DNA from: a phage
Length of the DNA stretch: 64,000 nucleotides
Strand: one strand, 5' to 3'
NCBI GenBank assembly: GCA_025830695.1
Contig: GCA_025830695.1_4111.1
Below the pieces are notes generated by a model, which saw nothing but the letters and a program-made list of their open reading frames with translations, was not told the DNA's origin and searched no databases. A program made the position numbers and the translations under genes. Within the stretch, counting starts at the first letter, position 1; each line of letters begins with the position of its first letter. Shown here in pieces: positions 46,746-46,827 of this stretch.

Positions 46746-46827
46746 CCGGGCGTATCTCAACGGTCTTCTAAACCGTCGTTAATCGAGTAACTGGAGTATG
46801 CAGGTTCGAGTCCTGTCGCCTGGGCCA
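46746..46827 (+). tRNA. Aberrant tRNA-like gene (anticodon-like loop TCT, Arg); no D-arm found by hand folding
   Basis: Acceptor ccgggcg/cgcctgg; T arm gcagg-ttcgagt-cctgt; gCCA. A hairpin acggt-cTTCTaa-accgt starts only 7 nt after the acceptor. A 23-nt region with hairpin gtta-atcgag-taac follows. Confidence 0.5.

Follow-up and report, generated by a model that had tools for sequence, protein, structure and literature searches.

A phage tRNA-Arg(UCU)-like gene family with a core that appears to be wired unlike the cloverleaf

A non-canonical tRNA-Arg(UCU)-like gene of 82 nucleotides (46746..46827, plus strand) was found in a 64,000-nucleotide stretch of phage DNA (GenBank assembly GCA_025830695.1, contig GCA_025830695.1_4111.1; the window). 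Comparative analysis indicates that this element belongs to a large phage tRNA family and is not a decayed copy; the family is missed by standard gene finders and is mostly unannotated. The element is likely to be a functional elongator tRNA-Arg(UCU) for AGA codons and, by wobble, probably also for AGG, with a core wired unlike the cloverleaf. This reading is supported by conservation, by covariation, by the restriction of anticodons to arginine and by the exchange of the element with canonical tRNA-Arg(UCU) in the same genomic slot; we infer its expression, processing, charging and ribosomal use, together with its three-dimensional fold.

The element follows a canonical tRNA-Ser(UGA) gene on the plus strand (46652..46741; called by ARAGORN and scored at 62.4 bits by the Rfam tRNA model). 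A sequence-only reading of this DNA had placed the two genes 4 nucleotides apart, and tRNA-Ser(UGA) does end at 46741 and the element does start at 46746, with the spacer AAAU (46742-46745) between them. The genes are probably co-transcribed. Upstream of the pair lies a promoter-like site (46614..46641, plus strand) in which GGGACA and TATAAT are set 16 nucleotides apart, with a TG ahead of the -10 hexamer and 10 of 12 consensus matches; the total of promoter-like sites in the region was not above that of shuffled sequences, and this putative promoter is only suggestive.

Most parts of the element, all on the plus strand, are those of an ordinary tRNA. The acceptor stem pairs CCGGGCG (positions 1-7, 46746..46752) with CGCCUGG (46817..46823) over 7 bp, the single G·U being pair 3:70, and is followed by a G discriminator (46824) and an encoded CCA (46825-46827), as expected of a tRNA. 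The T arm (GCAGG-UUCGAGU-CCUGU, 46800..46816) has a tRNA-type 5-bp stem and a 7-nucleotide loop of the UUCRANY type; the loop has the canonical UUCGANY form and reads UUCGANN in 70 of 71 close homologues. Likewise, the anticodon arm (ACGGU-CUUCUAA-ACCGU, 46760..46776) combines a 5-bp stem with a 7-nucleotide loop containing U33, the anticodon UCU (46767-46769) and a purine at position 37. The sequence-only reading had recognised each of these parts; the acceptor, T arm, CCA and UCU hairpin are real and under selection, and the three stems covary. It had also seen that the anticodon hairpin starts only 7 nucleotides past the acceptor stem and that this leaves no space for a D arm, and both observations hold: no separate D hairpin closes a D loop in the stretch from position 9 to the anticodon stem. 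The intervening nucleotides begin with a U8 A9 connector (46753..46754) that is conserved in 71/71 close homologues and in 179/180 members of the wider family; these two bases were in no search pattern. Downstream of the anticodon hairpin lies a 23-nucleotide segment (46777-46799) within which GTTA and TAAC could pair.

Standard software did not recover a cloverleaf in the checks with ARAGORN and Rfam that had been proposed. ARAGORN made no call for 46746-46827, and the element went unreported when the whole window was scanned with RF00005 (Rfam tRNA) at its gathering score. In a 301-nucleotide scan RF00005 gave the element 32.6 bits, where the gathering score is 29, but only with a fit that shrank the 15-nucleotide D arm to 4 nucleotides and opened a 20-nucleotide insert ahead of the T arm. 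The tRNA family was the sole threshold match in the Rfam scan of the element, sX4 and a plastid 3′UTR family remaining far under their gathering scores, and a Y-RNA-like, tmRNA-like or other Rfam family was rejected. A covariance model built on 47 homologues (R1) scored the element at 102 bits (E = 3.7e-27), far above chance, and any other site in the window at 30 bits or less. Canonical tRNA-Arg genes reached about 19-24 bits on the family model, compared with 84-104 bits for members. The folding energy of the element was unremarkable relative to shuffled sequences (z = -0.61). In most database records the annotation is absent or wrong, with entries such as tRNA-OTHER, tRNA-Undet, tRNA-Leu(taa) in 121Q and tRNA-Val(aac) in Yaboi.

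The family is widely distributed among phages. By blastn, near-identical copies of the element, mostly sited within tRNA clusters, were detected in 272 phage records. Their lineages are unrelated to one another and include Asteriusvirus, Felix O1, Sugarlandvirus, Kuravirus and Streptomyces phages. IMG/VR yielded 71 distinct close homologues; a broader set that shares the architecture comprised 180 distinct sequences from 166 loci, most of the surveyed loci being partial genomes. Only 4 matches were found in 185,579 species genomes, all of them on MAG contigs. Because the same 82 nucleotides occur in unrelated phage families, a lineage-specific pseudogene produced by deletion of the D arm from an orthologous tRNA-Arg was rejected.

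The proposed fold was assessed by covariation. Across 47 sequences, 94.8% of cells were paired and the covariation score was 0.766, compared with 0.186 for shuffled sequences and at most 0.154 for slid controls. Covariation was found at 7/7 pairs of the acceptor stem, 4/5 pairs of the anticodon stem and 3/5 pairs of the T stem, with 99.1% of cells paired in both the acceptor and the T stem. A structure-free scan of mutual information returned, as its top 12, exactly the pairs proposed for the element. The covariation check that had been suggested for homologues in related phages revealed abundant compensatory changes.

The analysis also overturned part of the anatomy given by the sequence-only reading, which had no D arm and a long extra arm. 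Positions 11-13 pair with positions 40-42 in all 71 close homologues, joining U10 C11 U12 C13 (46755..46758) to a 3′ strand of G40 A41 G42, plus U43 (46785..46788). The three covarying pairs of this helix, P2 (11-42, 12-41 and 13-40), are 100% paired in this set, and pair 12-41 occurs as UA 46, GC 13, AU 11 and CG 1 times, and pair 13-40 as CG 57, GC 8 and UA 6 times. In the broader set of 180, 11-42 forms in 179 sequences and 12-41 in 180, each with four Watson-Crick types, and 13-40 is Watson-Crick in 141; pairing over the three positions was 92.6%, compared with 17-36% when the partner strand was slid. Both position 10 and position 43 are U in 71/71 close homologues. Between P2 and the anticodon stem, A14 (46759) shares mutual information of 0.73 with position 39 (A·C 44, C·A 10, C-G 6, A-U 5, U·G 3), and A14 and C39 (46784) may form a non-Watson-Crick layer. 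The pattern of substitutions thus argues that a D-stem-like helix (11-13 CUC with 40-42 GAG) exists and encloses the anticodon hairpin.

Nearest-neighbour energetics do not predict P2 (-20.3 kcal/mol with P2 and -21.4 without it; P2 pair probability 0.004), and the helix would therefore depend on tertiary contacts. The fold preferred thermodynamically is a local one, the hairpin GUUA-AUCGAG-UAAC (-23.0 kcal/mol, pair probability about 0.18), whose three inner pairs nearly all close homologues can form and which would be the long extra arm of a true D-armless tRNA with a 7-nucleotide connector. We regard such a molecule as very improbable, since the hairpin noted in the first reading shows no covariation: pairs 34-45 and 36-43 are invariant, 35-44 is broken and uncompensated in 3 sequences, and about 14 of 71 sequences leave the outer pair 33-46 open. 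Moreover, in other subfamilies the bulge after the anticodon stem is only 3-5 nucleotides long, and the 103 of 180 members with such a bulge lack the UUA needed and are unable to form the hairpin. It also crosses the covarying 11-13/40-42 helix, with which it could coexist only as a pseudoknot.

The unpaired segments of the element are themselves highly constrained. From the anticodon stem to the 3′ strand of P2 runs a one-sided bulge of 8 nucleotides, CGUUAAUC (46777..46784), in which C32, U34, A36 and A37 are invariant (n = 71) and the first six bases vary among CAUUAA, CAUCAA, CGUCAA and CUUUAA. The linker into the T arm, AACUGGAGUAU (positions 44-54, 46789..46799), carries GG followed by A; its invariant positions in an alignment of homologues (A2) are A44, A45, G48, G49, G51, U52, A53 and U54. 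This linker resembles the canonical tRNA-Arg D loop AAUUGGAUA, and in many family members exactly that sequence occurs, followed by CAU.

These features suggest a model in which the usual D-stem 5′ strand (UCUC), past U8-A9, would lead straight to the anticodon stem. Beyond the anticodon hairpin and the conserved 8-nucleotide bulge, the strand would come back for GAG to pair with the UCUC strand, and the D-loop-like segment (AAYUGGA...) would come last, directly ahead of the T arm. The order would thus depart from that of a normal tRNA in that D loop and anticodon arm are exchanged around the D-stem 3′ strand, creating a three-way junction. The resulting long arm, with 5 anticodon-stem pairs and about 5 D-stem-like layers, would equal in height the D stem and anticodon arm of a normal tRNA, which together have 10 layers. 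A permuted or intron-containing gene that matures to a normal cloverleaf was rejected by inspection, as no excision or circular rotation of the segments sets the D loop between the D-stem strands without the anticodon arm.

The same data bear on whether the element is a degenerate tRNA-Arg(UCU) pseudogene left by neutral rearrangement. Gene finders reject the element, and genuinely broken copies exist elsewhere (one locus, L027, has the 5′ half only, and another, L098, has a truncated copy adjoining an HNH gene). However, the 180 distinct sequences, from phages with hosts ranging from Enterobacteria to Streptomyces, show compensatory changes in every helix together with invariant loops. Changes within the Asteriusvirus clade all preserve structure, being solely G-C to G·U, a compensatory C-G to U-A and a discriminator G to A; in JNE01 the compensatory change is C6-G73 to U-A in alignment columns, which is acceptor pair 6:67 in tRNA numbering. 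In Felix O1, furthermore, the element is kept as the sole gene with a UCU anticodon. Decay, against which the conserved termini had already been taken to argue, is effectively refuted by the covariation, the homologues not being young duplicates of a single sequence, and retains a negligible probability.

Anticodon identity points to arginine. Among 180 family members the anticodon is UCU in 121, ACG in 34, UCG in 12, CCU in 8, GCG in 1 and GAU in 4; arginine anticodons thus account for 176/180 and GAU for the remaining 4, a bias that is partly a sampling effect because the search patterns fixed a GGA-containing linker. The anticodon loop is CUUCUAA in 60/71 close homologues, and the other 11 read UCU save for one CCU. 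Bacterial arginyl-tRNA synthetase (ArgRS) recognizes C35 plus U or G at position 36, bacterial tRNA-Arg carries A or G at discriminator 73, and A20 in the D loop is the main determinant for the E. coli enzyme (PMC9976931). C35 followed by U or G36 is kept in 176/180 members while position 34 varies, and the element, with its UCU anticodon, has the C35, U36 and G73 of a bacterial tRNA-Arg. The discriminator of the 49 CCA-encoding close homologues is G in 27, A in 18, U in 3 and C in 1 (a purine in 45/49). In at least 90% of alignment A2 the base after the invariant GG is A (UGGAG; column 50), the GGA motif also being part of some search patterns; this A and the invariant A36 and A37 of the bulge are candidates for the place of A20. 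The GAU members carry A73 in 4/4 cases, and A73 is a bacterial Ile determinant. On the 14 contigs with two members the anticodons are always different. Pair G3:U70 is found in the window element and in canonical sister tRNA-Arg genes; mischarging by AlaRS through this pair was rejected as a feature of the family, only 8/47 members having it.

Comparison of related phages revealed that the element and canonical tRNA-Arg(UCU) replace one another. In the Asteriusvirus phages UE-S1 and G17 a canonical tRNA-Arg(UCU) lies 4 nucleotides past tRNA-Ser(UGA), and in the window, 121Q and PBECO4 the same slot holds the element instead. The Felixounavirus phage Ro111lw carries a canonical tRNA-Arg(UCU) at the exact site of the Felix O1 element and its HNH ORF, and the flanks match right up to the gene borders (99.6% and 98.6% identity). 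Of 46 element-bearing loci, only 1 had a separate canonical tRNA-Arg(UCU). The complete Felix O1 genome has 25 tRNAs called by ARAGORN, Arg(ACG) among them, and no Arg(UCU). The Felix O1 genome paper reported that AGA is over-represented and that a matching tRNA would have been expected (PMC3185647). In the ORFs of the window, AGA makes up 26% of arginine codons (9.7 per 1000 codons) at 33% GC.

Not all members have the 3′ end of the window element. CCA is encoded in 49/71 close homologues and in 107/180 of the wider family. Of the 22/71 close homologues that lack it, 11 close the acceptor into a long leader-trailer helix, often with a T run downstream, whereas the canonical tRNA genes beside them in those clusters do have an encoded CCA. 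This closed form, which occurs for example in Kuravirus HC-25922 and Bas93, is odd for a plain tRNA precursor. The sequence of the extended stems is not conserved.

The 11 closed-stem copies, so unlike their neighbouring tRNAs, raise the alternative of a tRNA-Arg mimic that does not decode: a decoy or sponge for an anticodon nuclease, a tRNA-targeting defence, ArgRS or a modification enzyme, or else a structured processing or termination element. One locus (L047) retains a canonical tRNA-Arg(UCU) directly beside a CCA-less closed-stem copy, and the extreme conservation of the unpaired segments goes beyond generic tRNA need. There is also precedent, as phage tRNAs are known to counter tRNA-cleaving defences (PMC11464382, PMC11555353). 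We nevertheless consider a mimic unlikely. Five arginine anticodons and an Ile(GAU) anticodon with its matching A73, together with the differing anticodons of paired members, describe an isoacceptor set and not a decoy for a single target. Most members have an encoded CCA and a purine discriminator, and the element substitutes for canonical tRNA-Arg(UCU) and is not an addition to it. No conserved partner gene was found near the element. HNH genes adjoin it in Sugarland, PHA46, Bas93, Felix O1 and the locus with the truncated copy, but the proteins share only the common HNH motif (21-27% identity). For the same reason, and because many members, that of the window included, have no HNH neighbour, a mobile cassette of element and HNH homing endonuclease was rejected, and the association with HNH genes is tentative. 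Of the options raised by the sequence-only reading, a tRNA-derived origin is upheld, and a decoy or regulatory role is less supported than decoding as tRNA-Arg.

A functional tRNA-Arg could act through the following steps. RNase P would cleave the transcript shared with tRNA-Ser(UGA), 4 nucleotides upstream, and trimming would then proceed as far as the encoded CCA. The host arginyl-tRNA synthetase would then charge the element via C35, U36, purine 73 and the A beside the GG motif, and EF-Tu would deliver it by means of its normal acceptor/T domain. It would supply capacity for decoding AGA, a codon that is frequent in the phage and rare in the host. RNase P, EF-Tu and the elbow contacts need just such features as the T loop, the GG motif, U8-A9 and the CCA encoded here. 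A further proposal, which we hold as possible but doubtful, is that the altered body escapes an agent acting on canonical tRNA-Arg or its gene, which would have allowed this tRNA to spread among unrelated phages and displace canonical tRNA-Arg as a distinct class of elongator on ordinary bacterial ribosomes. The agent could be a host defence or toxin directed at tRNA, a nuclease made by the phage for host shut-off, or homing endonucleases with canonical tRNA genes as their targets. The rewired tRNA would still serve ArgRS, EF-Tu and the ribosome, and the CCA-less closed-stem members would represent a second, non-decoding use.

The element is closest to canonical tRNA-Arg(UCU), as in E. coli argU, T4, UE-S1/G17 and Ro111lw, with which it shares the loop CUUCUAA, the type of anticodon-stem and T-arm sequence, a 7-bp acceptor, a purine discriminator, CCA, the D-loop sequence AAUUGGA and the slot in sister phages. 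The anticodon arm ACGGU-CUUCUAA-ACCGU is identical in the tRNA-Arg of Mooglevirus HP1. Unlike canonical tRNA-Arg(UCU), the element would enclose the anticodon arm, and not the D loop, in its D-stem-like helix; a D-loop-like segment between this helix and the T arm replaces the 5-nucleotide variable loop, and the 8-nucleotide bulge is extra.

The lack of a normal D hairpin, the short 5′ connector, the extended anticodon arm and the three-way junction recall mammalian mt-tRNA-Ser(AGY) and the armless tRNAs of nematodes and mites. Mitochondrial D-armless tRNAs are organellar, shortened and poorly conserved, and have co-evolved synthetases and EF-Tu (PMC7609411, PMC4394434). In contrast, the 82-nucleotide element retains a complete T arm together with U8-A9 and a D-loop-like GG segment, shows very strong conservation and would need to work with ordinary bacterial factors. 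It differs from the mitochondrial class in keeping the D-stem-like helix and D-loop-like segment in reordered form, in the genomes of phages of ordinary bacteria. The AGR/AGY codon box common to the element and mt-tRNA-Ser(AGY) is a coincidence.

Among phage RNAs, the T4 stable RNAs C and D (species 1 and 2) are likewise small RNAs in a tRNA cluster, beside T4 tRNA-Arg(UCU), and rnaC has a 3′ tRNA-like acceptor/T-arm module. They differ in being 119 and 139 nucleotides long and in having no anticodon-loop mimic at the same place, and homology was rejected, as model R1, run with filters off, did not exceed 20.1 bits in the T4 tRNA region. Other natural departures from the 7/5 cloverleaf are tRNA-Sec, tRNA-Pyl and allo-tRNAs (8/4 and 9/3 helices), which are thought to keep the L shape. 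These alter helix lengths within a normal order of arms, whereas the element has normal lengths and a changed order of D loop and anticodon arm. No phage example appears in a review of these non-canonical cellular tRNAs. YrlA Y RNAs and the 3′ tRNA-like structures of plant viruses also mimic tRNA, by means of a T arm and a stem that resembles the acceptor; the CCA-less long-stem members are superficially Y-RNA-like, but the family differs in its perfect anticodon loop and in mostly having CCA on a 7-bp acceptor. We found no prior description of such a phage tRNA in the full-text literature searched, which covers few subscription journals, and an earlier report is possible.

The cloverleaf is among the most conserved of RNA folds, and outside organelles essentially no functional tRNA is known whose D arm is absent or rewired. 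If the element is charged and decoded, bacterial ArgRS, EF-Tu, RNase P and the ribosome would tolerate a quite different tRNA core, and the element would explain the puzzle of Felix O1, in which the over-used AGA codon apparently had no tRNA. Should the proposed identity be true, the family would offer a natural new scaffold for tRNA engineering, and phage tRNA inventories would be systematically wrong. It would also raise the question of why phages have repeatedly replaced a normal tRNA-Arg, which bears on tRNA-targeting phage defence.

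The element, an 82-nt tRNA-Arg(UCU)-like gene at window 46746-46827 (+), begins 4 nt downstream of a tRNA-Ser(UGA) gene called by ARAGORN (46652-46741). The window (33% GC) comes from an Asteriusvirus-like E. coli jumbo phage; near the element it shares 94-95% identity with PBECO4, 121Q and relatives. Written 5′ to 3′, the element is CCGGGCG UA UCUC A ACGGU CUUCUAA ACCGU CGUUAAUC GAGU AACUGGAGUAU GCAGG UUCGAGU CCUGU CGCCUGG G CCA, which contains every feature named in the sequence-only reading. That reading also held that the element lacks a standard cloverleaf, and neither ARAGORN nor the Rfam tRNA model found one. 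ARAGORN called six tRNAs in the window, the element not among them, and a whole-window scan with the Rfam model at the gathering threshold did not report it. In a 301-nt scan the same model gave 32.6 bits (gathering score 29), a fit that needs the D arm collapsed from 15 nt to 4 nt and a 20-nt insertion before the T arm. The minimum-free-energy fold is unremarkable (z = -0.61). A promoter-like site with an extended -10 (46614-46641) lies upstream of both genes and is a weak candidate for their expression context.

Several features of the neighbourhood were recorded. tRNA-Gly(UCC) (45550-45622) was called by ARAGORN and is absent from the whole-window Rfam tRNA gathering scan. The anticodon stem of tRNA-Ser(UGA) is CUUGU/ACAAG in the window (46678-46694) and ACGGU/ACCGU in 121Q (alignment A1, columns 40-58); the differences are compensatory throughout, and the 121Q stem is identical to that of the adjoining rearranged tRNA-Arg. 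Five copies of a small-ORF family with the motif MTHEEWM (about 54-66 aa) surround the element: three directly after it as a tandem array in which stop and start codons overlap (46849-47335), and two among the upstream tRNA genes (45328-45522 and 45847-46047), where the motif lies a few residues inside the listed ORF.

The fold was determined by comparison. In an alignment of 47 distinct homologues (A2), covariation was observed at 7/7 acceptor pairs, 4/5 pairs of the anticodon-type stem and 3/5 T-stem pairs, bearing out the expectation of compensatory changes in homologues. A further helix, the D-stem-like pairing of columns 11-13 with 40-42 around the anticodon arm, was paired in 47/47 sequences and covaried at two of its three pairs. 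Over the proposed fold 94.8% of alignment cells were paired, and its covariation score was 0.766, compared to 0.186 for shuffled alignments and at most 0.154 with the partner strand slid. A structure-free mutual-information scan returned exactly the proposed pairs as its 12 strongest. Among 71 distinct close homologues, pair 11-42 was always CG, pair 12-41 was UA (46), GC (13), AU (11) or CG (1), and pair 13-40 was CG (57), GC (8) or UA (6). Positions 10/43 were U/U in every one of the 71; positions 14/39 combined as A.C, C.A, C-G, A-U or U.G and may form a fifth, non-Watson-Crick layer. Among 180 listed sequences of the wider family, pairs 11-42 and 12-41 were Watson-Crick in at least 179, with four pair types each, and the three pairs together were 92.6% paired in the matches listed, compared to 17-36% in slid controls. 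Among Asteriusvirus copies the element differs only by G-C to G.U, C-G to U-A (a compensatory change), and discriminator G to A.

The GUUA/UAAC hairpin of the sequence-only reading is poorly supported by this comparison. One inner pair is broken without compensation in three sequences, the outer pair is often unpaired, and the three inner pairs, invariant or nearly so, offer no covariation by which to judge them. The hairpin would cross the covarying helix, and it is impossible in 103 of the 180 listed wider-family members, where the bulge is only 3-5 nt. Nearest-neighbour energetics favour the hairpin (-23.0 kcal/mol, compared to -20.3 with the new helix, whose pair probability is 0.004); the case for the new helix is therefore comparative, and tertiary contacts would have to stabilize it.

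The order of parts differs from that of a canonical tRNA. UCUC...GAGU resembles a D stem (GCUC...GAGC in canonical tRNA-Arg), and the AAYUGGAGUAU that follows its 3′ strand resembles the tRNA-Arg D loop AAUUGGAUA of sister phages' canonical genes; many listed wider-family members have precisely AAUUGGAUA here, with CAU after it. A canonical tRNA runs acceptor, U8 A9, D-stem 5′ strand, D loop, D-stem 3′ strand, anticodon arm, variable loop, T arm, whereas the element runs acceptor, U8 A9, D-stem 5′ strand, anticodon arm, bulge, D-stem 3′ strand, D-loop-like segment, T arm. Its topology is a three-way junction. The long arm comprises five anticodon-stem pairs and about five layers (U.U, three Watson-Crick, A.C), giving the ten layers of a normal anticodon stem, 26.44 pair and D stem. 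An L shape of normal dimensions would be possible, within which the linker GG would dock on the T loop.

A covariance model built from A2 scored members at 84-104 bits and canonical tRNAs at no more than 37 bits across about 0.8 Mb of phage loci; its single match in the window was the element. The genes with intermediate scores proved to share this architecture and to carry the anticodon ACG, GCG or UCG; CCU is found in one close member. A broader pattern (TAATTGGA, then 3-9 nt, then ATG and the T arm) matched at least 120 loci. A parser requiring acceptor, UA, 5-6 nt, anticodon arm, 6-11 nt, UAAUUGGA..AU and T arm, applied to all loci retrieved, yielded at least 180 distinct sequences in at least 166 loci. 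The anticodons of the 180 listed were UCU (121), ACG (34), UCG (12), CCU (8), GCG (1) and GAU (4). The four GAU (Ile) members (L131, L137, L154, L224) all have A73, which suggests from sequence that the rearranged scaffold was re-used for isoleucine. Since the search patterns fix the GGA-containing linker and are biased towards Arg-like members, "only arginine" is held at lower confidence than "mostly arginine". At least 14 contigs carry two members, with different anticodons every time. One viral contig (L055) holds three rearranged tRNA-Arg genes (478-558, 3326-3405 and 3407-3496; UCU, GCG, UCG). Each has a U discriminator, and in the UCG copy the linker includes an additional 4-bp hairpin whose loop is GUGA. 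A tRNA-Ser(UGA)-like gene with a long variable arm at a locus edge (L049 9-87) has only 7 nt between acceptor and anticodon stem, received no ARAGORN call and scored 37 bits with the family model; it may be a further tRNA that lacks a normal D arm, or else a gene that is degenerate.

The presence of the element in relatives, raised earlier as a check, was established: blastn with the 82 nt alone returned 272 phage records, 263 with at least 80% query coverage. Carriers include Asteriusvirus, Sugarlandvirus (Demerecviridae), Felixounavirus including Felix O1, ~145-kb Klebsiella myoviruses, Justusliebigvirus, Vequintavirinae, Kuravirus, Bas93, the jumbo Salmonella phage PHA46 and Streptomyces phages, lineages that are unrelated to one another. 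The 71 close homologues were assembled from phage records and three IMG/VR pattern scans, each leaving a different part of the element free. One element pattern run against 185,579 species genomes matched only four MAG contigs, and the family looks phage-restricted. The identical 82 nt in 121Q (L001 432-513) are annotated tRNA-Leu(taa), the Streptomyces phage Yaboi copy (L012 995-1073) tRNA-Val(aac), and the remainder mostly nothing, tRNA-OTHER or tRNA-Undet; these annotations contradict one another and are probably wrong.

HNH genes adjoin the element in Sugarland, PHA46, Bas93 and Felix O1, and their proteins have nothing in common except the HNH motif. In L098 a truncated 5′ fragment (1458-1528) is followed by an HNH ORF (1570-2076, -) and a complete variant copy (2103-2182); L027 6108-6183 (-) is a 5′ half only. 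Phage tRNA clusters with the element also gave ARAGORN "tRNA-???" calls with two-base anticodons (L008 1063-1137; L019 928-997 and 2598-2672; L021 262-337; L086 1770-1845), one of them annotated as a tRNA-Ser pseudogene in Iguana_ER37.

Sister phages hold canonical genes where the element sits. UE-S1 and G17 (a sister Asteriusvirus subgroup) and Erwinia phage Hallingskeid have canonical tRNA-Arg(UCU) in the position after tRNA-Ser(UGA). This raised the idea of a broken orthologue, which the blastn matches across unrelated lineages rule out. Felixounavirus Ro111lw has canonical tRNA-Arg(UCU) exactly in the slot of the Felix O1 element and HNH ORF, and the flanks match at 99.6% and 98.6% identity as far as the gene boundaries. 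In Mooglevirus HP1 a canonical tRNA-Arg lies downstream of tRNA-Ile, and the order published for Sf14 is Ile-Arg(UCU)-Ser (PMC12482277). Of 46 element-bearing loci, one had a separate canonical tRNA-Arg(UCU) as well. The 25 ARAGORN tRNAs of the complete Felix O1 genome include Arg(ACG) and no Arg(UCU); its genome paper pointed to an over-representation of AGA, for which a matching tRNA would be expected (PMC3185647). In the window ORFs, AGA makes up 26% of Arg codons (9.7 per 1000 codons). In E. coli, AGA usage is roughly 2 per 1000.

Bacterial ArgRS recognizes A20, C35, U36 or G36, and A73 or G73 (PMC9976931). Across the wider family C35 is retained, position 36 is U or G, and position 34 varies; the discriminator is a purine in 45/49 CCA-encoding close members. 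The A directly 3′ of the invariant linker GG is a candidate stand-in for A20, as are A36/A37 in the bulge. Together these observations argue that the element is probably a functional tRNA-Arg(UCU) with a rearranged core. The sequence-only reading was right that it is tRNA-derived and no pseudogene and wrong about its fold, and the decoy it entertained is less likely than decoding.

A G3.U70 pair occurs in the element (46748, 46821), in that of Felix O1, and in the canonical tRNA-Arg(UCU) of UE-S1 and Hallingskeid (L002 447-523, L004 521-596). G3.U70 is the classic AlaRS identity determinant. It occurs in only 8/47 family members and is thus not a family trait; Ala mischarging in these enterobacterial phages is a possibility.

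Encoded CCA is absent from 22/71 close homologues. In 11 of these 22, at least 13 of 14 leader-trailer pairs lengthen the acceptor stem, often with a T run after it (among them L011 994-1075, L013 995-1076, L015 1000-1081, L018 10457-10538, L020 2635-2716, L031 3702-3783, L047 1611-1692, L049 1702-1783), and GCUA or GCAA mostly replaces CCA. In L020, L031 and L049 the neighbouring canonical tRNAs do encode CCA, and their stems are not extended in this way. Processing followed by CCA repair is one possibility for the CCA-less members, a non-decoding role another. It is mainly because of these extended-stem members, one of them beside a canonical tRNA-Arg(UCU) (L047), that we retain a decoy or mimic as an unlikely reading of the element.

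As a tRNA-Arg(UCU), the element would work most like the ordinary phage gene. The D arm and the variable region are where it departs from cloverleaf tRNAs. In topology it is reminiscent of D-armless mitochondrial tRNAs. In contrast to those, it has retained segments like a D stem and a D loop along with a complete T arm, its sequence is very strongly conserved, and it would depend on unadapted bacterial factors. T4 rnaC and rnaD are unrelated, and no Rfam family other than tRNA matched. The literature searched, with incomplete coverage, held no description of such a phage tRNA, and a review of non-canonical tRNAs does not mention phages; with that coverage, it is not certain that the family is unpublished. 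The element family is a large, conserved and unannotated structural class of phage tRNA that is directly testable.
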